This document shows, piece after piece, positions 1 through 34,352 of a stretch of DNA of 37,805 bases. The stretch covers positions 1 through 37,805 of the IMG/VR virus record IMGVR_UViG_3300033067_000568, one strand, 5' to 3'. This DNA comes from a virus. Taxonomy: Duplodnaviria; Caudoviricetes. The number at the start of each line of letters is the position of its first letter. The first letter of the stretch is position 1. The translations under genes and the position numbers were made by a program. The notes beneath the pieces are model-generated. The model searched no databases and was not told where the DNA came from. It worked only from the letters and a program-made list of their open reading frames with translations.

Positions 1-114
1 AGCGAGACCCGTGCAGTTGGTCGAATTTGATCCGTCAGTCCTGACAAAATAATCCGCCCCCTGAACATCCAGAGCGATAAGCGAAAAGATGAGGAGAAGG
101 AGAACCTTCTTCAT
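1..114 (-). CDS. Partial (5' end only) signal-peptide-bearing protein, possibly a beta-helix/tailspike type
   Basis: Not in the ORF track. Read by hand: ATG at 114 overlaps the TAA of the upstream gene (TAATG). It translates MKKVLLLLIFSLIALDVQG|ADYFVRTDGSNSTNCTGLA and is open to the window edge. YFVRTDG..N...C.G resembles the start of secreted beta-helix proteins. Confidence 0.8.
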   Translation of the reverse strand, partial: MKKVLLLLIFSLIALDVQGADYFVRTDGSNSTNCTGLA

Positions 115-2417
115 TAATTATTGCTCCCACCCATCTGCGCCCAGACAGTTCCGTTCGTGCAAACAATGGCAGAGTCAGCGAGCCCAAGAACAACGTCAGC
201 CCCTCCGGCAGAGTAAAACAATGAATTATTATCAAGCGTTATGTTGTTTGCGCCCGTGTTGACCACGTTCATACAGCACCCGCTCAGGTCAGAACTTGGA
301 GCCGTGAACGTATTTGTCGTGTTTGTTGTTACTGCGCCTGCTGATGAGATGTCTTTGAATGTCCCACAAGCGTCTGCCGTGATCGTTGCCCCGGCAGTTA
401 TCGTCTGACTCGCTGGCGGTGACGGGTGTCCTAAACGTTCCGGGGTTCCGCTGTTGTCCCGGCAGAACTCGAACGCGCTGTCAGTCGAGTCGTACCAGAA
501 CTTACCTTGTTCACCAGTACAGTCGTCATCATCGACTGCAACATTGTTGATATCGATTTTACCTGTTAGGTTAGGAGTTGGTAATGTGGCGACACCTGCG
601 CTTGTGATTGCCGCCTGACCCGTCGAACCAACCGTCAAAAGCGCTCCTGCGGTGTATGTTCCAATTCCTACGTTCCCGGCTGTGCCGAGTATCGTTGGGC
701 CAGTCGGGCCTGCGATGGTCTGCGTATAGATGGTTCCTGTCGGGCCCAAGTCAAGCGAGCCGCGCGGTAGCAGAGTGCCGATGCCGACGTTTCCGGCGGA
801 TGTGATGATCATGATATTGCCGTCACCCGTGGCCGTGGATGAAACCATCAACGGCGCGCTGGAACCCTGCTTAACGATCTCAAGGGTTGTGGATGGAGTT
901 GTGGTCCCGATACCGACAATATCGGTCGTGGTGGATGTGTAGACGTTCGTTCCGCCGTCGTTCCAACCTCCAGAACCAACACTCAATCCATCTATCTGAG
1001 TTTGAATGTTTGAAGTTGTACCCTTAACATAGGATAATTCGGTCAACGATGGATATGTTGAGGTAGGCAAAGAACCGATGGTTGTTGTCGTAGGCCAGAA
1101 TGTGATTGTATTAGCTGTCCCGATGCCTACTGAACCACCTGAAATATTAGTCAATCCACTTCCGTCACCAACGAAAGCTGTCGCATTGACAGTACCAACA
1201 ACATTTAAAGCACTAACAGGATTAATGGTATTAATACCAACATTGCCACTCGATTTGACAATTAAATAATCCCCATCTGAACTTGCCGTTGAAGAAATCA
1301 TTAATGGCGTTGTTGTTGATTGCTTTACTAATTCTAAATTAGCACTTGGCCTATAAGTTCCAACGCCAACGTTCCCAGAAGTAATTACTAAATCATTGCT
1401 CCCCCAGAAAGAATAATTCCTTGTGCCGGAAGAAGTTGGTACTGCATAAAAACTAATACTATCCCCATTATGTGTGCCGACGAATGTTGATTGCATCCCA
1501 TAAAGTTTGCCAGTATAACTTCCATTTACAGCCTCTACCAAACCCAAAACTCCAGTATAACGATCAGCAGTTCCCGTTGCTTGAGTCCTTCCCTCAACTC
1601 CAGCAAGATTTAATTTACCAACAGATGTATCCTCAGCTAAACCTGCAACGCCAATAGAATGTCCTCCTCCTGTATTGGCTGCGCTTCCTGTTTGTTTTGC
1701 GTATCCTCTTAAAGACCAAACTACATCATTCGTCAAGTTTGGATATACATAAGACACATCTGCCGCAGAACCCACTATATATGTGCCAAAAGTTGTCGTA
1801 TCTGTTGGTGCTGTTGTTTTTCTTACATTGAAACGAGAACCTGCCCAAGTAGAAACTGTTGTTCCTATTCCGACCGTATCTGATGATGTTGTTGGACTAA
1901 TATTAGTCCCACCATCCGTCCATCCTCCAGAACCAACACTTAAACCATCTATCTGTGTCTGGATATTTGAAGTCGCGCCCTTGACGTAAGATAATTCTGT
2001 CAAAGTAGGATATGTTTCCGTCGGTAGCGAGCCGATGGTTGTCGTAGTCGGCCAGAACGTGATCGTGTTAGCGGTTCCGATGCCGACTGAACCTCCGGAG
2101 ATATTTGTAAGACCTGAACCATCCCCAACAAATGCAGTTGCACGGACTGTTCCGACCACTTGTAATTTTTGTGTCGGGCCAGTCGTTGCGATTCCGATAT
2201 TCCCACCGCCTTCGAATATGACCGCTGAATCATCGATTGTTGTTGATGCGGTATATTTTGGGATCGCTCCGACAACGCCTGGACTAACAGTTCCGATACC
2301 GACGCCACCTGAGCTAACAGTCTCGTAATAATCTAAACCATCAATGGCGGCCTTGTAATCGGCATATGATATGGAGCAAACAAAAAGAAGGACGATGAAT
2401 AAAAATAAATTTTTCAT
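114..2417 (-). CDS. Tail-fibre-like protein with GNVGIGT repeats and an N-terminal signal peptide (767 aa)
   Basis: Many G(N/S)VG(I/V)GT beta-repeat motifs, two TELSYVKGxTSNIQTQID fibre motifs and Gly/Thr/Ser-rich composition. SD AAGGAGG. N-terminus MKNLFLFIVLLFVCSISYA|D. Confidence 0.8.
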   Translation of the reverse strand: MKNLFLFIVLLFVCSISYADYKAAIDGLDYYETVSSGGVGIGTVSPGVVGAIPKYTASTTIDDSAVIFEGGGNIGIATTGPTQKLQVVGTVRATAFVGDGSGLTNISGGSVGIGTANTITFWPTTTTIGSLPTETYPTLTELSYVKGATSNIQTQIDGLSVGSGGWTDGGTNISPTTSSDTVGIGTTVSTWAGSRFNVRKTTAPTDTTTFGTYIVGSAADVSYVYPNLTNDVVWSLRGYAKQTGSAANTGGGHSIGVAGLAEDTSVGKLNLAGVEGRTQATGTADRYTGVLGLVEAVNGSYTGKLYGMQSTFVGTHNGDSISFYAVPTSSGTRNYSFWGSNDLVITSGNVGVGTYRPSANLELVKQSTTTPLMISSTASSDGDYLIVKSSGNVGINTINPVSALNVVGTVNATAFVGDGSGLTNISGGSVGIGTANTITFWPTTTTIGSLPTSTYPSLTELSYVKGTTSNIQTQIDGLSVGSGGWNDGGTNVYTSTTTDIVGIGTTTPSTTLEIVKQGSSAPLMVSSTATGDGNIMIITSAGNVGIGTLLPRGSLDLGPTGTIYTQTIAGPTGPTILGTAGNVGIGTYTAGALLTVGSTGQAAITSAGVATLPTPNLTGKIDINNVAVDDDDCTGEQGKFWYDSTDSAFEFCRDNSGTPERLGHPSPPASQTITAGATITADACGTFKDISSAGAVTTNTTNTFTAPSSDLSGCCMNVVNTGANNITLDNNSLFYSAGGADVVLGLADSAIVCTNGTVWAQMGGSNN
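945..1202 (-). repeat. Intragenic 86-codon repeat, C-terminal copy
   Basis: Encodes VVGTVNATAF...GGWNDGGTN; 81/86 aa identical to the copy at 1902-2159. Confidence 0.9.
1902..2159 (-). repeat. Intragenic 86-codon repeat, N-terminal copy
   Basis: Encodes VVGTVRATAF...GGWTDGGTN; 81/86 aa identical to the copy at 945-1202. Confidence 0.9.
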
Positions 2418-2425
2418 GTTCCTCC

Positions 2426-2746
2426 TTAAATGCCAGTATTAAAAACAGCGTTGAACGCGGCGTATGTTTCCGATGCCCTGTTCGTCCATGCCGTCGAATA
2501 TGCCGTTGTACCTTTGGTGTAGGTGTAATTTGTGATCCCTGCAGATATGGTGGCCTTGGCTATGAAATAATAGCCGTCTTGCCTGAGATAACCGTAATAC
2601 CGTGGCGATGCAGCGGCCTCGTCGATGTCAACGATCTTGTAGGCGTTGTATAGGTCGTTGAAATTCCGGGCCGTTCCAGGGTACATGGCGGCGTATGCAG
2701 GAACGCACAGAAAAACCGCGATAATAAAAAATAATATTTTCCGCAT
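2426..2746 (-). CDS. Small tail-fibre-associated protein with signal peptide (106 aa)
   Basis: SD AAGGAG. N-terminus MRKILFFIIAVFLCVPAYA|A. The YYG...W.NRAS.TY pattern recalls small phage structural proteins. Confidence 0.7.
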   Translation of the reverse strand: MRKILFFIIAVFLCVPAYAAMYPGTARNFNDLYNAYKIVDIDEAAASPRYYGYLRQDGYYFIAKATISAGITNYTYTKGTTAYSTAWTNRASETYAAFNAVFNTGI

Positions 2747-2757
2747 AGAGACTCCTT

Positions 2758-4989
2758 TTAATTACAAGTTCCGCATATTGAATTTGTCAATGATCCTGTG
2801 CAATATCCAAGTATTGACGTTCCGCCACTGATCGACTTAACGCAAACAAGAGTGCCTGCCGTGGTTGTTCCTATACCAACGCGCATGTTTCCTGTGCCAA
2901 TATCGAGCGTCGCTCCAGGGGCTGTTGAGCCGATGCCGAGGTTCCCACCAGACGTAAAACGCATGGCGGTCGATGCCGTTGCGCCGACTTGCAGTAATGA
3001 TGTCGGTGTTGTCGTCCCGACGCCGACGTTGCCTTCTGAAGTAATTCTTATGCGTTCCGTTGCTGAAGTTGATCCGATTGCAGCCGTCCTAAATTGTAAA
3101 TGAGATCCAGCTGCTGATGCGGTAAATGCTTCCGCAGCGATTGCTTGAATAACTGCACCGTAAACATACTGTGTCCCGGTCGTGCTATACGAACCGGCGA
3201 ATCCAAATGCACCAAGGCGTGAACCAGAATCTAACGCTGTATAATCATTTTGCTTTAGAATGATTGTTCCTCCAGATGTTGTACTGTCCGCAGCAGAAGA
3301 GACTATACTAAAATGGTCTCCGGTCGTCGGGTGATATTCCATCTGGTTCGTTTTAATGTTATGGAGCGAAACATTTTTTCCGCCTGATTTTGTAAACGTA
3401 GAACCGCCGCCGTTATCGAAAATTGAGTAATGTATTTCTCCGATAGCAAGGTTTGAGGCGTCAACCAAATTTGTGACATTGGCAAATGTTCCGGTATTAT
3501 GCTCGATGTCTAAATCATAAATCTTAAAATAGCTTGTTGTAGAGCCTGAGCTTGAAACTAAAACAGAATTTTGAACAGATTCAACTGCAACTTGAAATAC
3601 TTGGGCCGGATAACGACAATCATAAAAATTAAGCGCATTCACTCCTAAAACGATAAATGCACTCCAGATAAGTGAGTGTTCGCCTAAACGGACGCCGTTA
3701 TAGTAAGTTTTAATCTTTAAATTTTTCCAACCCCCTGAGACATTTCCAGCGAGCATATCCGGTAACTTTAAAGCAAAAGAATCGTTATGAGTAGGTAATG
3801 CAAGATTTGAAACAGGCCCTGTATCAAAAGTTACATTATCACCTTGCGCTTGGTCAGCGTCTTTTAACTCAAGCGCAGAATGCGTCGGGTCTTGTACAGT
3901 TCGGAAACGGATATTTTCAAATATGGCATTTATCCTTGCTATATTTCCTGTCCCGCCACCACCTGAGTCTGTAACAGACATGATTGCATTTTCACCATTC
4001 GTACCATATTTTGTTCCATAAATAATAGCACCATTATTTGCGGCAGCATTTGGAGCAGAAGATACTGGCCCCTTAATGTGGAATGTTGTAACTGGACTAG
4101 CAAAAGCAATGGCTGGGAATGCTATTTGAGAACCGCCAGACTGATCGAAAGCACCATTGACAATATAAGTTCCTTCAGGAAAAAATATTATCCCTGTTTT
4201 TCCAATGACAGAATCAGAACCTAATGCGGCAAATGCCGCACGAATGGCGGTTGTGTCGTCTGTACCGTAAGTGTACGAGCTTGACGAAACGGTATCGGTT
4301 GCGGCATTAGTTAGTTCAACACTTGTTGCACTGTTAATCGATGCGATGGTAGTAGTCAGGTCTAAGTTTGTTCCGGCAGCACTTTGAATGGTAATTACTT
4401 TTCCAATATCAGATGCAGCAAAAGAAGCTGAGGCACTTGTAAAAGTATTGTCAGCAGCCGTTATGGCTCCGTCAAACGCCTGAACACCATCTCCCTTTGC
4501 TCCATACTGCTTTACGTTAAAAACAACAGCACCATCTTCAGTCCCACCCGTAAAACTTCCATCAACAACGAATCCGTTTTCGGTCGTATGGGCAACTGTT
4601 TTACCGTTCTTGTTTTTGAATTCATCGACCGGAGTAATATATCCTGTTTCGTCCGTCATCGTGGTCACGATCGTCCCGCTTGTGTAGGCCGAACAATACA
4701 TACGATATGCGAGCTGATTGCTCCCGCGCGATTCAGCGAGAACCGTTCCCGAACCTGCACCCGTTCCGGTTGCTACGGTCTGCCAAGTCGAAACGCCGTC
4801 CGTAGAACTCTGCAACACCCAAGTCCCGACGAACGTTCCCGAAACTGAATAGGTGAACGAATCGCCAACCTTGACTGAGAGTACGCCCCCTGCCGTATTC
4901 GCTGCGGTGAAACTTTTGGAAACCGTGGCGGCGAACGCCTGACCGCACACCAAGAACGCCAAAATTAAACTCAAGATGAATTTTTTCAT
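2758..4989 (-). CDS. Tailspike/depolymerase-like protein (pectate-lyase-3-type beta-helix) with signal peptide (743 aa)
   Basis: FNVKQYGAKGDG ... TDDTTAIRAAF ... IIFFPEGTYIV signature and C-terminal GNVGVGT repeats. SD AAGGAG. N-terminus MKKFILSLILAFLVCGQAFA|A. Confidence 0.85.
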   Translation of the reverse strand: MKKFILSLILAFLVCGQAFAATVSKSFTAANTAGGVLSVKVGDSFTYSVSGTFVGTWVLQSSTDGVSTWQTVATGTGAGSGTVLAESRGSNQLAYRMYCSAYTSGTIVTTMTDETGYITPVDEFKNKNGKTVAHTTENGFVVDGSFTGGTEDGAVVFNVKQYGAKGDGVQAFDGAITAADNTFTSASASFAASDIGKVITIQSAAGTNLDLTTTIASINSATSVELTNAATDTVSSSSYTYGTDDTTAIRAAFAALGSDSVIGKTGIIFFPEGTYIVNGAFDQSGGSQIAFPAIAFASPVTTFHIKGPVSSAPNAAANNGAIIYGTKYGTNGENAIMSVTDSGGGGTGNIARINAIFENIRFRTVQDPTHSALELKDADQAQGDNVTFDTGPVSNLALPTHNDSFALKLPDMLAGNVSGGWKNLKIKTYYNGVRLGEHSLIWSAFIVLGVNALNFYDCRYPAQVFQVAVESVQNSVLVSSSGSTTSYFKIYDLDIEHNTGTFANVTNLVDASNLAIGEIHYSIFDNGGGSTFTKSGGKNVSLHNIKTNQMEYHPTTGDHFSIVSSAADSTTSGGTIILKQNDYTALDSGSRLGAFGFAGSYSTTGTQYVYGAVIQAIAAEAFTASAAGSHLQFRTAAIGSTSATERIRITSEGNVGVGTTTPTSLLQVGATASTAMRFTSGGNLGIGSTAPGATLDIGTGNMRVGIGTTTAGTLVCVKSISGGTSILGYCTGSLTNSICGTCN

Positions 4990-5002
4990 TGAATGACTCC
5001 TT

Positions 5003-6433
5003 TTAAGATCCCACAGGCATAAATTGTAGGTCGGTTGATGGTGCTGTACCGAATGAATCTAGTTCAGCCCTGTAATATTCGTTTTTTCTGATTGGCACAC
5101 ACATGCCGTTTTTACGGTTCCCTTGTGTAGCTGAAAATGTGCTATTAACTCGCCATCCAGACGCATAACCGACAACGGTCGAAGGTGTTGCCGATGAGTC
5201 TGAATAAAATATTAAATCGCCGCCAGAACCGTCAGTTCCACTATTGAGCCAACCACAAAAAATACCGTCTGTGGTCGCTTGATAATTAGTGGCAAGTGAT
5301 TTCGAAACGCGCGCGCCGTACAGAGAACCCAGTGATGCGGTAGTATGCGTATGCCCAGGGTCTGCGCCGGATGTGACGTTTGCCCCTGTTATAGTTGTCG
5401 CCGCCACCGTCCCAACAACCTGCAATTTCTGCGTCGGCGACCATGTGCCAACGCCAACGTTCCCGTTCATAACAACGAGCCCGCCAACGGGCGCTGTCGT
5501 CCCAAGTCCGACGTTCCCTGAAAAACTGTTCACGCCCGTACCCGTCTGCGTATAACCACCCGTGGCTGTCGTTGCCACAACCGTTGTCGTACCTGTGGCC
5601 TGTAACGTGGTAAATTTACCGGCGTTCGGTGTCGTTGTGCCGATTCCGACGTTCGGGGCTCGTAAGTCCAAATACTGATATGCTGACGCCCCCTGATTAA
5701 CTTGGAGAACGTTCAGGCTGTTTGACACGATAGACGGCAAATTAACCGAAGCCGCGCTCGCTGCTGCTGCTGCTGCACTTGCCGCTGCTGCCGTTGCATT
5801 GGAAGCCGCGCTTGTGGCATTGGCTTGAGCTGCTGAAATAGCATCTGCGTCCGGACCGTCCGTGAAACCGTCGCCATCATCGTTAACGATTATCGAAGCC
5901 CCTGGATTGCCGACCAAACTGGCAGGTATCGCGGTGTCGAAATCGTCAGGGTCAGTCGTCTCGGAAAATTTAACGGACCGGTCAATTTCGTCCTGTTGTT
6001 GCTGATCTATCATGATTAGAGAATCAAACGTGTCCTCATGAGTTTCAGGATAGAACGCGCCCTGATTGCGAATGTCGGTGAGCTGTTTGATGGGCCGGAC
6101 GCGGCGAATGGTAAGGATGTAATTCGTTTTCAGATCCCCATCGCCGTCCAGCCAAGCCTGTGCGGAATTTACGAGAACGACGTTACCACCACTCGATGAA
6201 CCTACGCCAGTCACGGTATAATCCGTGGTTAATGTCAGCGTGGTTTCAACGTCGTTGGTATCTCGGACCGTGACCAAGAGATCGGTATTAGCAAATATTT
6301 TGTAGGAATAGGAATAGGTGTCGACCGCGCCGTTGCCGGTGTAATCCATACGGCTTGTCGTCGATGATATTGTCGCGTGAACGGGAGCGGTGAAGGTCAA
6401 CAAACACAAAATTAAGAGTAATCGAAACATCAT
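5003..6433 (-). CDS. Tail fibre protein with T7-type N-terminal anchor domain, preceded by a signal peptide (476 aa; start may be the second ATG at 6430)
   Basis: TISSTTSRMDYTGNG...YSYKIF...DLLV...LTLTTDYTVTG...LTIRR...QLTD..NQGAF.PETHED.FD.L.MIDQQ is the podovirus fibre adaptor domain. It is followed by an Ala-rich helix and GNVGLGT repeats. Confidence 0.88.
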   Translation of the reverse strand: MMFRLLLILCLLTFTAPVHATISSTTSRMDYTGNGAVDTYSYSYKIFANTDLLVTVRDTNDVETTLTLTTDYTVTGVGSSSGGNVVLVNSAQAWLDGDGDLKTNYILTIRRVRPIKQLTDIRNQGAFYPETHEDTFDSLIMIDQQQQDEIDRSVKFSETTDPDDFDTAIPASLVGNPGASIIVNDDGDGFTDGPDADAISAAQANATSAASNATAAAASAAAAAASAASVNLPSIVSNSLNVLQVNQGASAYQYLDLRAPNVGIGTTTPNAGKFTTLQATGTTTVVATTATGGYTQTGTGVNSFSGNVGLGTTAPVGGLVVMNGNVGVGTWSPTQKLQVVGTVAATTITGANVTSGADPGHTHTTASLGSLYGARVSKSLATNYQATTDGIFCGWLNSGTDGSGGDLIFYSDSSATPSTVVGYASGWRVNSTFSATQGNRKNGMCVPIRKNEYYRAELDSFGTAPSTDLQFMPVGS

Positions 6434-6448
6434 GCCTCCGCTATAAAT

Positions 6449-6476
6449 AGTCTATGTTTTATACGGTTATAATCAA
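6449..6476 (-). promoter_or_regulatory. Putative sigma70-like promoter for the fibre operon
   Basis: TTGATT-N16-TAGACT in an AT-rich gap upstream of the GGAGG SD. Confidence 0.5.
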
Positions 6477-6492: not shown

Positions 6493-9400
6493 TTAAAAAT
6501 CAAGCCTAGTTCGTTTTTTCTTTTTCTTGTTATCTAAATATTGGCGTCCACCACCGAACCACCAGTAATAAAATTTACCTATCAGTGGAAGCCCACTCCA
6601 AACTTTATAGTTATCAACACCACGTTTTGACTGCAAATCTGAATATAAATCACCGATAACAGGAAATGGCGGAGCGATCGTAGACAATACTGCTGATCGC
6701 AAACCTTCACGTTTTGCCTTATAAATGGTGTATTTTGAAAAACCAATAAGACGAAGAATATTATCAATCACTAAATCAGAAGGCCGAATCGGACGGCCCA
6801 AAAGCAAATCTTTAATCACGTCTGTGCTTGCTCCCATAACTGCAAGAGCCATCGAGAAACGTACTAGGTCTATCATGGCTTTTTTCGGATTGTTTTTCAT
6901 CTCCATAAAAATTTTATTGTGATAAACGTCAAGCTGTTTGATTGAATACGATTTGAGCATATATGCGATACGCATATTACCGCCCTTCGCATAATACTCA
7001 GGCATTTCGGAAACGGTTACCGGCTGATAATCAAGCAACCGGCTGAACAATAAGTATTTGACGTTCTCGGTCGGATTCTCATTTTTAAGATCATCTAACG
7101 TCTGTGCAGATTCCTCACCGAAAACACGGTTCAATTCTTGAATCAACGCAGGATCGTTAGCGTTCGCCTGTTTCGACAACTTATTCATTGCGCCGTTGAT
7201 GAACGTCTCTTTTAGCAGAGAATCCATCTTGCTGAAACCAATAACACGAAATAACTTTTGAACCATATCCCCAATTTTAGATTGGTCTACAAATTCTTCT
7301 GCGATACGATCAAGGTGCAAATCGGATGTTTTGACGCCTTTGCCACTGATCGCTTTTGCAAGCCCAACACCCGACGAATAAATTCCGTTCTCGAACAACG
7401 ACGATGCTAAGTCATTAATTTGTGAAAGTGCCGAAACAGGAGAACCCATCGTATAAATATATGCGGTGTTCTTCCATAACGAAACCCATCCGCGCGTGCC
7501 ACGTTGCTTAAAACGGGCTTCCATTATTTTTTTAACCTCAGCCTCGTCTTTATGAGAAATCAATCCTTTTTCCATTAACTCATGCGTATATTTACCAATA
7601 CTTTTGTCAACGTCTTTTCCGTCCATTCCAAAGAATTTACGACTTTCGATTGCGTTATTCATCGACGAAACATACTCATGCAGTGCTGTCGTGCTATTTT
7701 TGTAAAATACGTTCATCTGTCCATCGACAGTTTCAATCTTCCGGGCCTTCGTGTTGCTCGGTCTTGACAGCCTGATTTCACCTTTGGCGAAACCGCGTAA
7801 TAGTTTATTGATGAACTCAACTTTTTCCTCATTGTTGAGAAGTTCGCCAATCCTGACTTGTTCCTCTTTGATAAGATTTTCGATCTGGCTCCACTGCTCA
7901 CCATTTCTAAGATAATTCATGAACGCTTCAGCGTCTATGACTCGGCGTGGAAAATAGAGGTCTAAATATCCGACATCCATACCGGCTTGGCGGGCGCGGA
8001 TATAAATTTTGTTCAACTCGTTCCGAACAGCTTCATATTCTTCTATGATTCCGTTACGTGATACGATTTCATCAACGACTTTATGATCGCTGTTTTTGAG
8101 CGCCAAATCCAAAGCCTTCGCATCCGCAGGATTCAATTCGCTGTATTTGTTTAAAAATGGTTCAATTATTTTCAGACTTTCTGAAGTTTCGGCTCGCACT
8201 AAATACTCAAATTTACGCATGGAATCACGAAGCGTTTTAGATATTTTCGCCAAGCGTGTTGAGAGAGGAACGAACGCGGCGTCAACCCATTCGTGGAAAT
8301 CTTTTGCGGTCTGACCATCAGCTCCAATTTTCGGAATATTTGGGATCACTATATGACCGGATTGATTCTTTAAAAAGTTTGTGCGAATAGCTTCAGGGTT
8401 TGTCTTCTGCGCCACTTCCCATTCGGCGGTGAGTTTTTCTCGGTAAGCTTTTCTTCTATAGCCTTCAATCTGATGGAATGGTTTTTCTTTAGCTGGTAAA
8501 TATGGTTGGGGATCATACCCCCATTCATGAATTGAATCCCCATTTGTAAAGATATCTCTGGCAGAGACAGTTTTACTAATAATCTTATATTCACCGTTTA
8601 ACTGGCTTTCTCCGTGTTCTTTTGCATAATTCCTATTGATAGAAACCCAATCGCCCGCTGTAAATGTACTTTTTGAATCCTTTGGGATGGCTCTATATAT
8701 TGTAATTACTTTATCTGGCTTATTTCTATATTGCTGCATTATGGAAACTGTTTGCATATCGTCAGGATGATTCTGTCCGTAATGACCATAATATTGAGCC
8801 GCTTTTCCACTATAAACATCATCCGGATAAGTTCCCGACAAGTCATAAAGAGGGCTTCCTGAATCTGCTGTTGGAGCGGTATGGTTTCCTCGATAATCAG
8901 CTTCTACCACACCGCTTTTATGCTTAATTTTTTCAACAGGAAAATATTCCTTAGCTTTAGCAGCCACATACTCCTCTGCGGTCTTGAAGTCTGCCGGATT
9001 TGTTGATTGCGGAATATCCTCTTTATACTGGTAGACAAATTCGTTATTCTTGGTCAAAAATCCTGGCTTGGCTTTGTCTTGGTCAAGATTCTCACGAACA
9101 AAAATATCTGCATGGTTTGCGTTCTTCTCCAAATCAAATTTTCCACCATACACTTTTCCGTCTTGAATGAACGCAGGGCCAATGATATTTTTAACTTTAT
9201 CTGGGTTTATAACCAAATCTTCGGTCGTCGCTTCAACCGATTCGTTTAATACCTTGATTTCTTTTCCTTCAAACATGGCCTTCTGGTTTTCGCTCGGCTG
9301 AATATTAATCGGTTCTTCGCCGCTATTAAACGGATTCACAACCGACCCACGTTCCTTCCCGCCGGGCAGGGCTTTTATGCTGTCCATGAACTCTGAGGCA

Positions 9401-11424
9401 ACGCCCAAATCATCGAGCGTCTGCGTTACCGTCTCGGCAGTTTTAACACCTGAACCTGTAATCATACCGATTGAGGCTGATACCGTGGCTTCTTTCCAGT
9501 TGATAGGGTCGCTCAACGCGATGTTTCCAACAACCGCCTGACTAAATTCCTGTGCGCCTTCCAATGTTCCGGCGGTCAAAACTTGTAGAATCTTCGGTCC
9601 TTTATCACCAAAAACACCGAATCGGTTTAACACAACGTCCTGCGGCAAATTACCCCAAAATGTCGCTGTGGCTGATAACGACGCGCTCTTTTCGCCGTAA
9701 CCGTTCTCGATGGCTTTCTTATATGTGTCACCGGAGTTGACAATTTCTTCCAAGATGGTCGATGTTCCGACACCGATCCAACGGGCGATAGACGGGGCAA
9801 TTTTGGCGATCTGAACACCCTTTGAAATGCCAAGCCCCGGAATAAAAAACGTAGACATCGAGCCAAGCCCTTCGTAAACTTGGTCAAGATACGTGGAATC
9901 TTCAACGGCATAAAAATCCTTGGCTGTCTTGCCCCATTCCTCAAACGCCTTACCGACTTCTTTCGCGCCAAGCCATTCAAGGCCGCTTCCGAAACTTTCA
10001 ACCGTTCCAGAAGCGCCACGCGCAATACCTTTTAACGCCCTCTGGATAGGTTCAAACGAAATCTCCCTCTCTCGCTTCGGGTCAAATACCTTGTCGTCCG
10101 GACCAAGCGGTGCTTGCGGATAGGTCTTATTATACTGCGCCCTTAAGACAGCTTCGGATGCTTCTTCAGGTTTTTTACCTTCGTCCAAATATGTCGTATA
10201 ATTGCTCAACGCATTAGCCAGCTCGCGCACATCGGATTCGTTGGCGATGTTCCAATTCTTGATTATCGGTATTTGTGTCCAAATTGAATTATCGCGGACG
10301 TTCTTTTGCTTGGTCAGAATATCCGTCAGACGGTTAATTTTTCGAGATTCTTGGCTGCTCATCACATTATCGGCCATCGAATCAACCAAAATTTGTTTGG
10401 CCTTAAATGCCTCAACACCGCTTAAAACTTCCTCTACAGCTTCAACGTATTTTTCAGCCGCCTCATTATCTTCTTTAAAACGGTCAATGTTATCTGACTG
10501 GGCCTTTGCCATGTCTTTCATCAGCTTGTTGCCCTTAACAACTCCTATGCCACCTTCTTCCGGCTTGTAGGACGCCGCTTGGATTTCTTCAATCGTCAAA
10601 TTACCGTTGATAAACTTATCGTTCAGGTCATATTCCAGATCGCGGCTGGAGTCTTTGAACATACCTTCAATTTTCTTCTGATCTTCTTGGCTTATTTTAT
10701 CTTTCTTAGAAGTCAAATATGCTGAGGCCGCCTGACCGTCCTTATTATCGAGCATAGCTGCAATAACACGAGCGTATGTCTGACTGGCACTCTTGGCGAT
10801 CTCACCTTCGATGACAGGAACGGGTATTCCATTGCGATAACCATAATTTATTAATTCTTGACGCTGTTTGAAAACCGACTGTTCAACCAAACCTTCCGGT
10901 CCGATATCCATATAATTCAACGCCGCTACGCCTTGGGCGTTCTGGATATATGCCTTGCTCAAGTCATCTTCATATTTCTTGGATTGTTCCGTAACGTGGT
11001 TCTGCGTCACGCGGTACAGGTCTGAACTTTTAACGGCTTTAATACGGTCAAACTTCGCCTTCTGCTGATCGTTCGAGAGTCCTTGACGTATCTTGTCCGT
11101 CCTCGTTTTCCATTCTTTTTCAACGTAATCCGGCGCGCCCATAGCGTTCTGACCAAGCCAATCCCTTTTCAGAGATGTCTGGATGTCCGTGAACACATTC
11201 GACATTTCAAGGTCAGAACCAGTGACACGCACATCATCTGCGTCCTGTTTCTGCTTGGCTATAATACCAGACACGTCGTTAACCAGCCCTTGCGCTGCAT
11301 GGGTGGTCTGCTGTACCTCTTGACCGCCACCGAACGCACTCAGAGGCTGTTCTGTATTAACGCGCGCCCCTGGTAACGGCGCTGTACGGACTGATGTTTC
11401 ACGACTGACTGGTACTGTAGGCAT
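6493..11424 (-). CDS. Large internal virion (DNA ejection/polyvalent-type) protein, 1643 aa, with an internal ART-like domain
   Basis: Lies between the tail tubular and fibre genes and is largely helical. MPTVP... N-terminus typical of podovirus ejection proteins; YFPRR and LKSYSIKQLD motifs in the C-terminal half. Confidence 0.75.
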   Translation of the reverse strand: MPTVPVSRETSVRTAPLPGARVNTEQPLSAFGGGQEVQQTTHAAQGLVNDVSGIIAKQKQDADDVRVTGSDLEMSNVFTDIQTSLKRDWLGQNAMGAPDYVEKEWKTRTDKIRQGLSNDQQKAKFDRIKAVKSSDLYRVTQNHVTEQSKKYEDDLSKAYIQNAQGVAALNYMDIGPEGLVEQSVFKQRQELINYGYRNGIPVPVIEGEIAKSASQTYARVIAAMLDNKDGQAASAYLTSKKDKISQEDQKKIEGMFKDSSRDLEYDLNDKFINGNLTIEEIQAASYKPEEGGIGVVKGNKLMKDMAKAQSDNIDRFKEDNEAAEKYVEAVEEVLSGVEAFKAKQILVDSMADNVMSSQESRKINRLTDILTKQKNVRDNSIWTQIPIIKNWNIANESDVRELANALSNYTTYLDEGKKPEEASEAVLRAQYNKTYPQAPLGPDDKVFDPKREREISFEPIQRALKGIARGASGTVESFGSGLEWLGAKEVGKAFEEWGKTAKDFYAVEDSTYLDQVYEGLGSMSTFFIPGLGISKGVQIAKIAPSIARWIGVGTSTILEEIVNSGDTYKKAIENGYGEKSASLSATATFWGNLPQDVVLNRFGVFGDKGPKILQVLTAGTLEGAQEFSQAVVGNIALSDPINWKEATVSASIGMITGSGVKTAETVTQTLDDLGVASEFMDSIKALPGGKERGSVVNPFNSGEEPINIQPSENQKAMFEGKEIKVLNESVEATTEDLVINPDKVKNIIGPAFIQDGKVYGGKFDLEKNANHADIFVRENLDQDKAKPGFLTKNNEFVYQYKEDIPQSTNPADFKTAEEYVAAKAKEYFPVEKIKHKSGVVEADYRGNHTAPTADSGSPLYDLSGTYPDDVYSGKAAQYYGHYGQNHPDDMQTVSIMQQYRNKPDKVITIYRAIPKDSKSTFTAGDWVSINRNYAKEHGESQLNGEYKIISKTVSARDIFTNGDSIHEWGYDPQPYLPAKEKPFHQIEGYRRKAYREKLTAEWEVAQKTNPEAIRTNFLKNQSGHIVIPNIPKIGADGQTAKDFHEWVDAAFVPLSTRLAKISKTLRDSMRKFEYLVRAETSESLKIIEPFLNKYSELNPADAKALDLALKNSDHKVVDEIVSRNGIIEEYEAVRNELNKIYIRARQAGMDVGYLDLYFPRRVIDAEAFMNYLRNGEQWSQIENLIKEEQVRIGELLNNEEKVEFINKLLRGFAKGEIRLSRPSNTKARKIETVDGQMNVFYKNSTTALHEYVSSMNNAIESRKFFGMDGKDVDKSIGKYTHELMEKGLISHKDEAEVKKIMEARFKQRGTRGWVSLWKNTAYIYTMGSPVSALSQINDLASSLFENGIYSSGVGLAKAISGKGVKTSDLHLDRIAEEFVDQSKIGDMVQKLFRVIGFSKMDSLLKETFINGAMNKLSKQANANDPALIQELNRVFGEESAQTLDDLKNENPTENVKYLLFSRLLDYQPVTVSEMPEYYAKGGNMRIAYMLKSYSIKQLDVYHNKIFMEMKNNPKKAMIDLVRFSMALAVMGASTDVIKDLLLGRPIRPSDLVIDNILRLIGFSKYTIYKAKREGLRSAVLSTIAPPFPVIGDLYSDLQSKRGVDNYKVWSGLPLIGKFYYWWFGGGRQYLDNKKKKKRTRLDF

Positions 11425-12268: not shown

Positions 12269-14749
12269 TTATCCCCTAACTGGTATCATACCGACCGGCG
12301 TGATCGATAATATCGATGCCGGTATCGGGTCAACCTGCCTTATAAAACATCGTCCGCCCAAATTCCATGTGGCGTCGATATTAACTTCAACGGGCCCGGT
12401 CATTAAATTCACCGCGGAATCATAGCCTTCTGAATCACGCAATTTCGCCTCGTACAAATTCTGCAACGGGTCATCGTCATCATCGTCCGGGGGCTGTTGG
12501 CCAACGAATAAACCGCGTGTTTCTTCGACCATCAGAACGACTTTCCCGATTAATTTGCGTTTGTCAATCATCGTTTCGCCGTTCGTGGAATCCAAGTCTA
12601 GGGTCTGCAAATCGGAAATATACGGCAAACCAACGTGTATGACGCCATACGGCTTATCCAGTGTGATTGCGCCACCTGTGACCGTGACCGTGGTGTACGA
12701 CGAATTATTCGGGCTGGCAACAACGAACTCATCGGCGAATATCGCGACTTCCTTGCCCTCCAAATGTCCTAAGCCGGACAACTCATCAACCGCGTCTGTC
12801 CAAACCGCTGTGGCGGTACTCCTGAGCGTAACCGGAACGGTTTTATGTGGCGTTCCGGTAACGACTGTCGCGCTCGAATATGCACCGATCGTGAACCGTA
12901 TCAAATCTCCTGTGGCATCGTACAGAAATATCTGGTTTCCGACATCGCCGGCCACGAACTGCGAGGCTGAGGCGGTCAGTGTCAGCGTTTCGTCATACGC
13001 CCAAGTTGTGCCACCGGATAACGTCATGGTCGTGGCGGTTGTATTACGGCCATCATACGTCAACGCGGAATCCAGGAACACAGCATCAATAATATCCGCG
13101 ATCTTGCGCGTGTACTGGCGTTCGATATACCGAAGGTCCGTTCCGTTAATCGGGCGTTTGATGATCGCGTACATCGCGTCCTCAGCGCCCTCTGGAACAA
13201 CGCACAGACGTTCCGGCTCTCCGTCCGTATCGTGCCTATGCCACGCCCATACCTGATGTTCCTTGACATATGTCATTGCTATCAAACTTCGCTCATCTGT
13301 GACATTATCTTCCAAAATAACCCATATGACAGAATTTGGGTTTTCCTGATAAACTATGTCAACAACTGTAAATCCTTCGAACAAATGTGACGCAAATATG
13401 GTCAAATCGGAGTCCTTGTAACCTTCGATGGCATCCGACAACAGATCGCGAACAACATTCCCGCGCGCCTGAACATAAACGATGGAAGTTCCAACGATGA
13501 CCGGCGTGACGATCGAAGCACCGCGGTACGCCCGTGTTTTCGGATTTACTTGGCCAGGCCGTATAATTCCAGCGCTATCGCCTTCAGCATCCCATATCGA
13601 ACCGCTGGTGAACACGATCATACGCTCCAAATCGATGATATGCCTGACCTCGTTGTACTGCCGGCCTGGAACGGAGAACGTAACGGCGTCATCGTCCTGC
13701 AACGGTGTGCTGTAGGTAAAATTCTTAAAATTGGCTGACTTGCCCATCCAAATCTTTTCGGGATAATTTGTGGTGTTTCCGAACGTCAGACGTTGCTGAA
13801 CATAGGCAGAGACGGCAGGATAATTGCTCGAACCAGAAAATGGATCCCGCGCAGTTGGTGGGGTATCTTCAGCATCGGCTGTGATACCGTTATCAATAAA
13901 CGATGTCCCGATGGCAACGCCGATAAATCCATACACACCGTTGATTTTTTTATACACATTGTATTCCCCTGCCCCAGATGCCGCGGTCCATGATACCGTG
14001 ATCGGCGAACCACTCGAAGGTGTCGCGCTCGAACCCGTTGCCGAAGACTGCAAGCTCTCCTCGAACGTTTCGGAATTGACTGCTGTTATGACCCACTCCG
14101 TTACCGAACCAGCCGCGCCTGAATTGGTTGGTGATGTCGGTGCGGCCTGTGACGGAGCGAACACCACCAGCGATAACGTCCATGACGTATGACCGCTACG
14201 GCGTAATTCGCGCACCGCGTAACTCTTGTGCGTAAGCGTAACAACATCAAGCGACTGGTTGTATTTTATTGTCTCAAGGTTAGCTTCCAGATACGGGGTC
14301 GGTATTTCGTAGATACTACCCGTGAGGGGATACCAATACGTGGCATTTGGGGGCTGTTGGTTGGTGTGAGCCAAGATGCAATAATAATTTACACCCAATC
14401 GCGAAGCTAAATCTCCCACAACATACGCGGTGACGTTACTCCATGCAGTGACTCCAGAAACGGTTATCTGCACTCCATTCCGAATGAAACGGATATACTG
14501 ATCGCCGACCTCAAGAACATACGTTTGGTCAGAGTTGAACACAAACGGGATGAGAACCGAACGTTTGGTTGAATCCTTGGTTGAAACAATATATTTGAAA
14601 CCAGGACGGTTATCGGCACCGCCTTCTTTCTTGATAATAAAATTCCGTACGGTACGCATACCAGACTGATATTTAACCGTGTCGGTCCTTGCGTATAGAG
14701 CCGGGGCCAACTCACCAGATGCCAGTGATACCTGTTTTACTGCGGTCAT
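12269..14749 (-). CDS. Tail tubular protein B (nozzle)
   Basis: SLASGELAPAL.ARTD..KY, LIPFVF, YVLEVG..YIRF, YPAV...QQRL.F, QVWAWHRH and GLPY motifs. ATG at 14749 overlaps the upstream TGA. Confidence 0.92.
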   Translation of the reverse strand: MTAVKQVSLASGELAPALYARTDTVKYQSGMRTVRNFIIKKEGGADNRPGFKYIVSTKDSTKRSVLIPFVFNSDQTYVLEVGDQYIRFIRNGVQITVSGVTAWSNVTAYVVGDLASRLGVNYYCILAHTNQQPPNATYWYPLTGSIYEIPTPYLEANLETIKYNQSLDVVTLTHKSYAVRELRRSGHTSWTLSLVVFAPSQAAPTSPTNSGAAGSVTEWVITAVNSETFEESLQSSATGSSATPSSGSPITVSWTAASGAGEYNVYKKINGVYGFIGVAIGTSFIDNGITADAEDTPPTARDPFSGSSNYPAVSAYVQQRLTFGNTTNYPEKIWMGKSANFKNFTYSTPLQDDDAVTFSVPGRQYNEVRHIIDLERMIVFTSGSIWDAEGDSAGIIRPGQVNPKTRAYRGASIVTPVIVGTSIVYVQARGNVVRDLLSDAIEGYKDSDLTIFASHLFEGFTVVDIVYQENPNSVIWVILEDNVTDERSLIAMTYVKEHQVWAWHRHDTDGEPERLCVVPEGAEDAMYAIIKRPINGTDLRYIERQYTRKIADIIDAVFLDSALTYDGRNTTATTMTLSGGTTWAYDETLTLTASASQFVAGDVGNQIFLYDATGDLIRFTIGAYSSATVVTGTPHKTVPVTLRSTATAVWTDAVDELSGLGHLEGKEVAIFADEFVVASPNNSSYTTVTVTGGAITLDKPYGVIHVGLPYISDLQTLDLDSTNGETMIDKRKLIGKVVLMVEETRGLFVGQQPPDDDDDDPLQNLYEAKLRDSEGYDSAVNLMTGPVEVNIDATWNLGGRCFIRQVDPIPASILSITPVGMIPVRG

Positions 14750-15363
14750 CAATCCCTCGATCTGATGTAATCTGTGTCCGGTTCTTTTTCAGGCTGTTGC
14801 TCACCGATGGCGTTCGCCTTCGACTTCGATATGGACAGGAAATACGCGCGATAAGCACGTTCCCCAAGTTTGAACGGATCTCCGGCAGTTACACGCGGAG
14901 CGATATAAAATGCCAACAACAACGAAAATGCCATCACGAAGTCCGGCGCCCATTTGTCAGGGCTGTCAGACTTCTTGGAATACTCAAGCGTCGCGTCCTC
15001 CATGTCGGTCATTATCAGCGGACCGGTCGTATCTGATATTATTCGATACGGTATCCTAGAATCGTTGCTATCGTTACGCGTTCCGCTTGGTATTCGTATT
15101 GCCTTGGAACAGTCAGCTGGATAACGGTATGAGAACGCCCACTCAGCTCCGTCGACCTCACGCAAATCCTCGACCAACGCCAATGGCTCAATAACCGTCA
15201 GGTATGGATTCGGGAAATCACGCAAGGACTCCAACAGCGCATCGGAATAAAAGCGACGACACGCCTTAGCTTCGCCAGAACGTTCCGTTTCAACGTTGCC
15301 AATTTCCAACGATGAACCAAGGTGCGACAACGCCATGTTGCATATTCCGGTTTTATCTGCCAT
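14749..15363 (-). CDS. Tail tubular protein A (gatekeeper/adaptor)
   Basis: ICNMALSHLG, W.F.Y.YPADC and F..AF...LA..IA motifs; position upstream of tubular B. Confidence 0.88.
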   Translation of the reverse strand: MADKTGICNMALSHLGSSLEIGNVETERSGEAKACRRFYSDALLESLRDFPNPYLTVIEPLALVEDLREVDGAEWAFSYRYPADCSKAIRIPSGTRNDSNDSRIPYRIISDTTGPLIMTDMEDATLEYSKKSDSPDKWAPDFVMAFSLLLAFYIAPRVTAGDPFKLGERAYRAYFLSISKSKANAIGEQQPEKEPDTDYIRSRD

Positions 15364-20475: not shown

Positions 20476-20928
20476 TCACTTGTCCAATCGCTTGCCTAAG
20501 ATGAGATCAATATTCGAATACCCTAACCGCCTAAACAGATCGATCGTATGCGGAGTGTTCGTTTTTATATGATGGAACACCACTTGAACCCCCTCAGCCG
20601 CCAACTGCTTCTCGGTCCATAGTATAAACTTGACACCGAACCCGCGCTTCTCAGGATCGATGAAAATAATGTCCTGCACAGCCTGTGGAGGACTTGAAAC
20701 GTAATGCGGATTTTTTCTGACGAAGAATACTGCATAACCAACAAGTTTGTTTTCATCATCACGCGCTGTGTATGCTCGAAGAACGCCCATCTCATCCATC
20801 TGTAAATAGGCGTCCCAGTCAGGAGCAAGCGGAATGTCCTTGTAGAAACTTACTTCAGCCCAATGTTTTTCAAGCAACGGTTTAATTTCTTCAAAAATAT
20901 CTTTGGCGCGTTCGAGGGCGAAAATCAT
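20476..20928 (-). CDS. GNAT-family acetyltransferase-like protein
   Basis: LVGY.VF, DIIFIDPEKRG.G and LFRRLGY motifs. Confidence 0.8.
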   Translation of the reverse strand: MIFALERAKDIFEEIKPLLEKHWAEVSFYKDIPLAPDWDAYLQMDEMGVLRAYTARDDENKLVGYAVFFVRKNPHYVSSPPQAVQDIIFIDPEKRGFGVKFILWTEKQLAAEGVQVVFHHIKTNTPHTIDLFRRLGYSNIDLILGKRLDK

Positions 20929-21580
20929 TAATACCTCCTCTGTTTGTTGCTGTTTTGAGTTTTCCTATCTGCCCAACGACAATTCGATTTTTCGTAATTG
21001 CCATTGTTGTTGATGCGGTCGATTGACAAGCCATCTGGCTTAATGCCCATGTCGAAATAAAAATTATCAAAATTCATCCATCGTTCGCAGACTTTAATCC
21101 CTCTACCGCCGTAGTTTTTATAAGATGGATGAGTTCGATTCAAACATCGGGCAATCATATTGCCCAAGTTTCGTATTCTTTTGAGTTTGACATCCCATGA
21201 GTTTTAAATCTTTCTTCAGCCAATTCTTTACACAAACATCCGCATGATCTTGTAGCTCCACGAGCCAAGGATGCTTGAGAGATTATTTTTAATTGTCCAC
21301 AGTCACAGCGACAGAGCCATTTAGAATTTCTGCCTTTATCAACGGATACAAAATTAAGAACAGTCAATCTGCCAAATTTTTCCCCTGAAATATCGGCACG
21401 TCCACCCTTTAAACATCCACATGACTTTGCTTGGCCGTAAGCTAGATTATTATAAGTGGTAATTTTTGATTTTCCGCAATCGCAACGACACAACCAATAC
21501 CTTTTGCGATTTTTATGGTGGGCAAATTTGATAACGGTAAGATGGCCAAATTTATGGCCTGACAGGTCAATTGCCTTCAT
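20928..21580 (-). pseudogene. Frameshifted HNH homing endonuclease (split into ORFs 21155-21580 and 20928-21167)
   Basis: Two DLSG.KFG.LTV...WLCRCDCG...SCGC repeats, then THGMS..KEYETW. The continuation (G)NMIARC...YGGRGIKVC.RW..F..F..DMG...SIDRINNNGNYE..NCRWA is in another frame. TGGGCAAT lacks one G relative to TGG-GGC-AAT. Confidence 0.85.
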
Positions 21581-26953: not shown

Positions 26954-27334
26954 CTATTCTGTCGCTTGGAGATATTTCTGGAGAGCTTCTTCTGGGCTGT
27001 GAGCGATGAATCCGACACCGCCCGACCAATTAACTGCACCAATAAAATTAACCTGTTCCTGTGTTGGTTTTGTAGTGTTCTTGGATTCGACTGCACAGAA
27101 ACGACCGTCCTTCGTCCATCCGACAAGATCGCTGGAACCATCACACAACCCGAAATGCACCGGCCGCGCGTTGCGGATAACGATGTCTGTCGGATGAACC
27201 TCGATATAACGAGTCTCAGGGAACCGTTGGACCTTGCCCTGCCACGCTAATCCAGTGTTGTTCCGGAAAAGGCGGGCGCCGACCGAGGATAGTTTTACCT
27301 GTATCCGGCGCATGATGTCGGATTCGGTGGTCAT
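26954..27334 (-). CDS. VRR-NUC domain nuclease
   Basis: ESDI, LFRNNTG, GSSDLVG, AVESK and QEQ.NF...V...GG motifs. Confidence 0.88.
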   Translation of the reverse strand: MTTESDIMRRIQVKLSSVGARLFRNNTGLAWQGKVQRFPETRYIEVHPTDIVIRNARPVHFGLCDGSSDLVGWTKDGRFCAVESKNTTKPTQEQVNFIGAVNWSGGVGFIAHSPEEALQKYLQATE

Positions 27335-27546
27335 CGTGATTTACTCCACTTCTCGATCTGCCCATGGATACGGGCAAGTTGTTTTTCCAAGAGCGCGATT
27401 TGCTCACGCAGTTTCGCGTTCTCCTGTTTTAGCGCGAGGACTTGGATGACTTTTCTATGATACTTCTCGTTCATCGTCGTCGTCACAACGGCACCTCCCA
27501 TGGCAGCCACATTCCAATTGTTTCCGGCGTGATTCATGCGGTTCAA
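27331..27546 (-). CDS. Hypothetical coiled-coil protein
   Basis: Fills the gap with 4-nt overlaps at both ends; heptad pattern. Confidence 0.6.
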   Translation of the reverse strand: MNRMNHAGNNWNVAAMGGAVVTTTMNEKYHRKVIQVLALKQENAKLREQIALLEKQLARIHGQIEKWSKSR

Positions 27547-30364: not shown

Positions 30365-30496
30365 ATGATGACAGTCAATTTGAGAAACGGAATACCGATA
30401 GTAGAGGTCGCTGAACCCACCCCCATTGACCCTAAACTTGCGCGTCAAAAGCTCGACTGTATCAGAGCCAAGGAACAGGAGAGTGACGCCACATGA
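30365..30496 (+). CDS. Hypothetical protein (43 aa)
   Basis: SD AAGGA before the ATG at 30365; ATGA overlap with the next gene. Confidence 0.55.
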   Translation: MMTVNLRNGIPIVEVAEPTPIDPKLARQKLDCIRAKEQESDAT

Positions 30497-30891
30497 AACC
30501 TGCGATCATCAACCACCACCGAAATTTCATATTCTGGTTCGTTGCATTCTGTTTGGTGCAAGCGTTCCTGCTGATCTATTGTATCAACGGCGAGGCGGCG
30601 GAATACACAGACGTCCAGATCGTGGACGCCATATACCGCGCCGAAGGCGGGAAGAAGGCCCAGTTCCCCTATGGTATTCGGTCAATTAAATGCGAAGGCG
30701 AGGCCGAGTGCCGTCAGATATGCCTGAACACGGTCAGGAACAACCGTAAACGTTTCGCCAAGCAGACCAAGTACACCGATTTTATAGCGTTCTTGGGTTC
30801 GCGGTATTGTCCGGTTGGCGCCGAGAACGATCCGCATGGGCTGAATAACCATTGGGTGAAGAACGTCCGTTATTTCCTAAACAGGAGTTGA
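30493..30891 (+). CDS. Membrane-anchored or secreted protein with a possible lysozyme-like fold
   Basis: N-terminal hydrophobic segment ending AA; AIYRAEGG, YGI and FL..RYCP....N.HW.KNV motifs. Confidence 0.55.
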   Translation: MKPAIINHHRNFIFWFVAFCLVQAFLLIYCINGEAAEYTDVQIVDAIYRAEGGKKAQFPYGIRSIKCEGEAECRQICLNTVRNNRKRFAKQTKYTDFIAFLGSRYCPVGAENDPHGLNNHWVKNVRYFLNRS

Positions 30892-33770: not shown

Positions 33771-34352
33771 ATGAGAATACTATTGACAGTTTTTATGTTT
33801 TTATTTGTGACAAGCGCATGGGCCTTGCCGATACCTACGGAGTATATCGGACATGCCTACGATGATGGTTGGGGATATCCGGCAACGTCGAGTTATGTTG
33901 GACCGGCGAACCGTGGCGGAACTTTCATTGGATTTCGTATATCGCAGCCTTACCGCGTTTCGATCATAAGCGGGATTTTGCGAGGGGCCGGAGAATGGGA
34001 GCGTGGCAGTATCTCCATGTCTTTGATACGCGGTTCAAGGAATTTCCGAGATACCGCGCTTCTTATACCAACCAACGACATCATTTTTGAAACGGAACGT
34101 TTTACTTTCCCATTGGATAACCAACAGCAGACTGTAAGCCACAACGCAAGCCTTGATCTTGAGGCTGGCGATTATTGGGTCAAGTATCAGGGTGCCGCGA
34201 TGTATGGTCATGTGATCGCACAGGGTTTTGGAATTGATGGGGATGTTATCGAGTCAGAGAGAATGGCAGGAGTCCATGCCCCAGAGCCAACGACATTGTT
34301 GTTGATGGCCGGCGGCATCTTGGGCGCGATCAGGATGAGAAGGAAAGTTTAA
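33771..34352 (+). CDS. PEP-CTERM sorting-domain protein
   Basis: Signal peptide MRILLTVFMFLFVTSAWA|LPI; C-terminus APEPTTLLLMAGGILGAIRMRRKV (PEP, TM helix, basic tail). Confidence 0.93.
   Translation: MRILLTVFMFLFVTSAWALPIPTEYIGHAYDDGWGYPATSSYVGPANRGGTFIGFRISQPYRVSIISGILRGAGEWERGSISMSLIRGSRNFRDTALLIPTNDIIFETERFTFPLDNQQQTVSHNASLDLEAGDYWVKYQGAAMYGHVIAQGFGIDGDVIESERMAGVHAPEPTTLLLMAGGILGAIRMRRKV

Follow-up and report, generated by a model that had tools for sequence, protein, structure and literature searches.

The window analysed here is the whole of a linear virus record of 37,805 nucleotides (IMG/VR IMGVR_UViG_3300033067_000568), with a CheckV completeness of 89%. Contigs from the best-matching public run, which may come from the source sample, covered it in 30/30 bins. 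Judged by its genes, the phage is an uncultured, short-tailed podophage of the epsilon15/BPP-1-like type. Pfam and PHROG profiles identified a terminase, portal, capsid, Bbp16, adaptor, nozzle, internal proteins and a 1643-amino-acid (aa) ejection protein on the minus strand, and the portal is 46% identical to that of epsilon15. After the ejection gene come five further minus-strand genes, running from 6430 to 1, where the left contig end cuts the block. These genes, which we call g1 to g5, are the subject of this report, since each predicted product begins with a Sec-type leader and the first of them joins its leader to a fibre domain of the kind that attaches to phage tails.

All five genes lie on the minus strand. 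The first, g1 (5003..6430; alternative start 6433), encodes a 475-aa anchor fibre in which the leader (6430-6374) is followed by an N-terminal domain (D1), a helical neck, a GNVGIGT-type shaft and a variable tip with 2 Cys. The 743-aa product of g2 (2758..4989; leader 4989-4930) consists of a small, all-beta N-domain with an SGTFVGT motif, a pectin-lyase-like tailspike body, a C-terminal fibre segment that matches tail-fibre PHROGs and, at residues about 585-710, Bdellovibrio MAT structures (8OML, 8ON4, 8OL4 and 8OND), and a tip with four Cys. The PHROG matches of g2 were phrog_32881 (E 4e-21) and tail-fibre PHROGs 9942 and 18345. A single-sequence model of g2 was set aside (predicted local distance difference test, pLDDT, 36.7). 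The fourth gene, g4 (114..2417; leader 2417-2361), encodes a 767-aa Ser/Thr/Gly-rich fibre with nine (V/I)G(I/L/V)(G/N)T repeats and six Cys, all within the last 135 residues. As a whole protein it had no Pfam or PHROG match and no solved relative, and its Atlas matches were all <0.9.

The remaining two genes qualify what an earlier, sequence-only reading had said of the block. That reading took all products to be fibres or tailspikes, which does not hold for g3 (106 aa; 2426..2746; leader 2746-2690), a small protein with no assigned fold in which the leader precedes 87 aa that belong to a large unnamed family and end in WTNRASLTY. The g3 model reached a pLDDT of 87.7, and its sole clear fold match was an 89-aa protein of an uncultured phage; no PDB entry matched at E <= 0.001 (best VIA Z 4.8), and no solved relative was found by sequence. 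The operon had also been called entire. This is right for the visible genes, but the contig end truncates g5 (1..114) after its first 38 codons, which hold the leader and the start of a Cys-rich protein. Homologous Cys-rich proteins of 593-603 aa are seen whole in two related loci, L136 and L141 (BLAST E 4e-6 and 2e-5).

Leaders were called by a home-made heuristic (basic n-region, hydrophobic h-region, small-x-small cleavage site) together with inspection. The heuristic called 6/47 window genes, namely g1-g4, a gene at 30493 and a PEP-CTERM gene. In g5 the basic and hydrophobic parts are present (h = 3.27) and a VQG-A site was recognised by eye; the script failed on the Asp before the cleavage site. 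The five open reading frames and leader-bearing N-termini described earlier were all found in the sequence, and none of the head, portal, tail or ejection genes was called, in agreement with the claim that core virion proteins have no signal peptide. A run of five from seven leaders placed randomly among 47 genes has a probability of 0.0006. The starts are backed by Shine-Dalgarno (SD) sequences, as had been proposed, with GGAGG before g1, AGGAG before g2, g3 and g4, and GGAG before g5, which is also TAATG-coupled. By comparison, an SD precedes 0/10 of the downstream in-frame start codons listed for the first 70 codons of the block genes. The g1 SD (6439-6435) points to the second ATG (MFRLL), where its homologs start as well.

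The D1 domain of g1 is the putative link between this block and the tail. PHROG tail-fibre profiles aligned g1 residue 21 to profile position 2 (best E 1e-39), and residues 21-160 match residues 3-133 of Carin-1 Dpo31 (Dpo31/Dpo36; E 1.5e-24). D1 fastens Dpo31 to the Carin-1 tail (PMC13317679), and an adaptor beta-dock holds the fibres in most podophages (PMC13730344). In the window, the putative docking site for D1 is the tail adaptor (tube A; 14749..15363, minus strand; phrog_394), which is encoded next to the tail nozzle (tube B; 12269..14749, minus strand; phrog_376, E 2e-184); neither has a leader. The fibre N-domain had earlier been taken for the T7 type. The Pfam Phage_T7_tail model gave no match at E 0.01, and the anchor is instead of the epsilon15/Carin-1 D1 type.

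Most homologs of these proteins have no leader. Among the best 120 of 1333 g1 homologs, a leader is present in 16 and absent from 104. Nearly all of the latter begin M-x-I/V/L-S-S, and the predicted cut in g1 leaves TISS, the N-terminus of the leaderless homologs after Met. Among the proteins screened, the heuristic had exceptions: P0077 was flagged and then excluded (its start is probably over-long), P0218 was missed, and P0254 and P0280 look like membrane proteins. For the g2 N-domain, 18 of the best 20 homologs are leaderless and start like MATVSKSF, and two have a leader. In both g1 and g2, the leader sits at the place of the initiator Met of leaderless homologs, and the predicted cut restores the N-terminus that follows this Met. 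The g3 family gave 1310 matches, and the heuristic found a leader in 11 of the best 150; the g3 search returned no viral loci and no match in cultured phages. Because most homologs of g1, the g2 N-domain and g3 are without a leader, it is an add-on in three unrelated domains.

The sequence-only reading had asked whether leader-bearing fibre domains form a clade. The leader label does cluster in D1 trees, with a minimum of 6 changes over 129 rows and of 7 over a chosen 37-row subset, but the number of origins is not fixed and a single origin was not rejected (approximately unbiased test, p-AU 0.435). In the viral and genome collections, 54/54 distinct anchor loci are leaderless, as are all prophage-like matches in GTDB genomes. 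The leader-plus-D1 pattern had 0 matches in viral_contigs, and the five leader-bearing anchor loci that we did obtain came from a pattern designed to find them. Across 17 leader-bearing anchor proteins the leader sequences differ, yet they keep the n/h/c pattern, with a small residue ahead of a Thr that is invariant.

Six metagenome loci, which add about two lineages to that of the window, share its gene layout but differ in cargo, and their tail proteins are 87-89% identical to its own. Leaders were found on 6/6 block genes in L136, 5/6 in L140 (one start is ambiguous), 6/6 in L141 if one gene uses a GTG start, and 3/3 in L137; L138 looks chimeric past the second gene and was excluded from this count. 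Homologs of g4 in L136, L140 and L141 have leaders at the same place. Between the window and L140, 6 silent and 3 replacement changes fall within the 19 leader codons, a silent bias that, like the SD sequences, supports translation from the leader start; the D1 domain shows 64 silent and 10 replacement codons. D1 identity to the relatives is 88-94%, compared with 87-89% for tube A and 87-88% for tube B. D1 is therefore as conserved as the tail proteins, which is expected if it still binds them. Pfam and PHROG profiles revealed no further D1 gene and no fibre gene beyond the block, leaderless or otherwise, among the window genes of this 89% complete record. A complex prediction with two adaptors and three D1 domains scored 0.00 and speaks neither way.

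Cysteine counts provide a further sign of export, since a bias towards even numbers marks disulfide-bonded exported proteins (PMC2823432). The mature Cys count is even in 14/16 leader-bearing and 44/104 leaderless anchors (Fisher p 0.0009, in a test that counts related proteins as independent). Among Cys-containing mature block proteins 14/16 have an even count, compared with 4/12 cytoplasmic proteins of the window.

A separate promoter had been proposed for the block. The candidate is a sigma-70-type site on the minus strand (6449..6476; TTGATT-16 nt-TAGACT) that lies 18 nt before the g1 ATG. With 8/12 consensus positions it stayed below the bar of our promoter scan, which returned 16 sites against 12.7 expected and listed none upstream of g1. 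Across five relatives (L136/L137/L138/L141 and L140), however, both other upstream variants keep TTG, TA.ACT, a spacing of 16 nt and a position 18 nt ahead of the ATG, with a different spacer. A site with at least 8 matches was present at 14/65 anchor loci. Enterobacterial leaderless loci are among them, so a fibre promoter is not special to the leader block.

From these observations, we think it very probable that the block proteins are exported by Sec and cleaved. Export is well supported by comparative evidence, namely added leaders that are kept despite sequence drift and even Cys counts. Docking on virions is supported indirectly, by a D1 that is conserved at the rate of the tail proteins, by the lack of a leaderless fibre among the genes found, and by the annotation of cultured Cellulophaga phages described below. 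Taken together, export by Sec, folding in the periplasm and docking of the D1 fibre on particles at lysis is the reading that we consider likely. The leaders would send the block proteins through Sec to the periplasm and be cleaved there. Trimerisation and disulfide formation would follow in that compartment while fibre-less particles form in the cytoplasm, and when the inner membrane fails at lysis, D1 would dock on the adaptor of finished particles. The g2-g5 products could attach by their own N-terminal modules or via g3; this is the weakest step, and some may be released free. A likely reason for export is that tips and shafts common to bacterial surface fibres need an oxidising compartment. 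Disulfides are not the general reason, because the leader-bearing Cellulophaga proteins hold only 0-3 Cys and the count is odd for two of the block proteins.

Tailed phages are taken to complete their particles inside the cytoplasm. The coat proteins of the filamentous phage M13 carry Sec leaders and remain in the inner membrane, and its particles leave the cell by extrusion instead of lysis. The likeness is that virion proteins pass through the host export machinery, as proposed here, but the present phage has a portal, capsid and short tail of cytoplasmic build. A close comparison is with Carin-1 Dpo31/Dpo36 (PDB 28LX, 8CK1; PMC13317679) and epsilon15-like fibres (PHROG 1640, 13893), which share with g1 a homologous N-terminal beta-sandwich, the helical neck and the gene position after adaptor, nozzle and ejection genes. 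Those fibres start at Met, whereas D1 in g1 is preceded by a leader and the next genes have leaders too. Like this block, Cellulophaga phages phi10:1 (gp091-094) and phi18:3 (gp085-087), in GenBank KC821618 and KC821620, have consecutive tail-region genes with Sec-type leaders. All seven proteins carry the GenBank annotation 'structural protein, experimental MS/MS' (tandem mass spectrometry), which is silent on leaders; phi10:1 gp095, a pectate lyase, is leader-bearing as well but is not annotated in this way. The seven MS/MS entries show that leader-bearing proteins can occur with tailed virions. The Cellulophaga phages belong to other families and infect Bacteroidota, and their leaders end before Gln, with few Cys and no D1 seen.

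Tailed-phage genes with signal peptides, capsid proteins among them, have also been described in Porphyromonas gingivalis prophages, where they are taken for prohead-protease substrates or envelope modifiers, without fibres among them and without a proposal of exported virion parts (PMC10367356). In passages of this paper and of PMC13452462, PMC10820202, PMC12946066, 10.64898/2026.10.24.761521 and 10.64898/2026.06.07.730766, the phage or host proteins mentioned with signal peptides are limited to capsid proteins, surface proteins, endolysins and one NosD-like protein. T4 fibres are made separately and attach last, to fibre-less particles (PMC3004832). We found no paper on exported tail fibres in the searched literature, which leaves most subscription journals outside its coverage. 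Parts of the block belong to known families; the export-and-dock route is new to that literature.

Several points weigh against this route, apart from the relatedness of the anchors in the parity test. Cys density is equal in leader-bearing and leaderless anchors (p 0.91), and the odd counts and the Cys-poor Cellulophaga proteins already noted fit a disulfide-driven route poorly. The Cellulophaga annotation is compatible with uncut leaders or co-purification and does not concern D1 proteins. Since the record is 89% complete and cut within the block, a leaderless fibre may lie elsewhere. After lysis, dilution would make docking of the trimers inefficient if the outer membrane did not keep both pools together for some time. 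Pfam and PHROG profiles identified no holin or spanin among the window genes, which leaves inner-membrane opening without a candidate. A weak Rz-like match at 27331-27537 (E 9e-4) was ruled out because it has no hydrophobic anchor. Finally, a promoter of its own would equally suit expression of the block apart from the late programme.

Such separate expression would also fit a captured fibre cassette that is displayed on the host surface and alters binding of the infected or lysogenic cell, with D1 as a relic or a new surface anchor. A model for this is the MAT fibre of Bdellovibrio bacteriovorus (PMC10769870), which shares with g2 a signal peptide and phage-like trimeric modules and has tip disulfides. 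Residues about 585-710 of g2 match the structures of Bd1334, Bd2439 and Bd2133 by sequence, and g2 has fibre modules common to four MAT structures. The shaft repeat is found in 6/16 leader-bearing but only 1/104 leaderless anchors, and the phage also has a PEP-CTERM surface-protein gene. However, MAT fibres are chromosomal and sit on the predator surface by a conserved 130-aa N-domain of their own that follows the signal peptide (PMC10769870), whereas the block lies in a phage late region and has virion-type N-domains. A relic D1 is at odds with a domain that changes no faster than the tail proteins, the phage would be left without a fibre, no integrase was seen among the window genes with Pfam and PHROG profiles (again at 89% completeness), and promoter-like sites lie ahead of leaderless fibres in enterobacterial relatives as well. 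We consider this explanation unlikely.

Ranking behind it, and also unlikely, is the idea that the exported proteins remain free in the envelope, where they would mask or cut a receptor glycan, prevent superinfection or help release, without becoming part of the particle. The pectin-lyase-like body of g2 would suit such a role, as would proteins of ~800 aa that relatives add to their blocks, which are BNR-repeat propellers with weak xyloglucanase similarity. A large leader-bearing gene lies within 3.5 kb downstream of the leaderless anchor at 11/54 loci (two of the products are lipoprotein-like). Free action in the envelope is likely true of some block members, and the hydrolase-like ones in particular may act apart from the particle. 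As an account of the whole block, it leaves the leader on the sole D1 protein unexplained, and two cultured phages have leader-bearing proteins whose annotation places them in the virion. It is very improbable that only part of each product is exported while the rest stays in the cytoplasm, owing to slow export or an internal start, and enters virions by the usual path. In favour of this, 13/17 aligned leader-bearing anchors have Met29 after the leader, homolog P0013 is called from that Met, and g3 has Met21. Against it, none of the later starts listed has an SD, the first 70 codons of g2 and of g4 contain no in-frame ATG past the leader, and even Cys counts point to an oxidising compartment.

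If export and docking at lysis are correct, they would add a step to phage assembly in which intracellular particles whose sole tail-docking fibre is exported stay non-infectious until lysis mixes the two compartments. Host export and disulfide systems would then affect phage yield and host range, and the use by phages of disulfide-rich tips common to bacterial adhesins would be explained. We lean, with less assurance than for the route in this phage, towards a general second morphogenetic route in tailed phages, by which the whole receptor-binding apparatus, tail anchor included, passes through Sec, matures with the help of host factors in the periplasm and is fitted to fibre-less particles in the lysing cell or outside. 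Leaders would have been gained by fusions that replace the initiator Met, perhaps repeatedly and in secondary fibres first, and phages and bacteria rich in surface fibres could swap disulfide-bonded tips. Signal peptides would then be no ground for excluding virion proteins in annotation. The cultured Cellulophaga phages make the question of export testable now.

The relatives show several further features. Large exported proteins of L136 (13918-18239), L140 (14445-18718) and L141 (13911-18367) have a short, Gly-rich C-terminal motif (GKASLTGGRIQ, RTVFGGYN and KIVIGGSTIDE are examples), which is possibly a docking or sorting tag. The same loci (L136 11293-13927, L140 11225-14208, L141 11172-13998) encode a small WDNRASLTY protein and then a fibre with NP(I/L)TGKLD in its mature N-terminus, possibly an adaptor and its ligand; the window analog is the g3-g4 pair. 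A g3 profile matched nothing in the collected loci, including these WDNRASLTY proteins, which are 18-20% identical to g3. Anchor fibres of L140 (9947-11188) and L141 (9947-11158) end in Cys-rich mini-tips (YCCKN, YCCP).

More distant phages that share the C-terminal domain of the ejection protein (9 loci) showed no leader block; in several of them, small genes of lysis type come after fibres without leaders. In L005, L010, L013, L016, L053, L057, L060, L064 and L109, a leaderless anchor is followed by a leader-bearing protein of 290-710 aa, most of these with even Cys counts; the arrangement is possibly an intermediate stage. Weak matches to the g4 repeats occur in 2/151 genomes from the phylum of the L109 genome. 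In L019 (13665-15466), where the anchor is leaderless, the genes in capsid and Bbp16 position have long hydrophobic N-terminal extensions.

The ejection gene (6493..11424, minus strand), assigned by position and by N-terminal matches to PHROG 10475 and 1044, is the last leaderless gene ahead of the block. Residues 839-974 of its product form a ParB-C-terminal-like segment (phrog_2579, E 3e-38), and its middle part differs in length among relatives, the whole protein ranging from 1598 to 1766 aa. Between the terminase and a GNAT gene, an HNH endonuclease is split over two overlapping open reading frames (20928-21580, minus strand) that match consecutive parts of phrog_374 (196-276 and 279-355). 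The first long gene in the rightward arm (30493-30891, plus strand) encodes a 132-aa leader-bearing protein with six Cys and a presumably lysozyme-like look; it had no family or PDB match, and its search gave no viral loci. Homologs occur in four spring-water podophage records, and the single translated one is also leader-bearing. In the early region, the leader-bearing PEP-CTERM protein (33771-34352, plus strand) scores above the Pfam and TIGR02595 cut-offs. Its gene adjoins a cold-shock protein gene and points to a diderm host.

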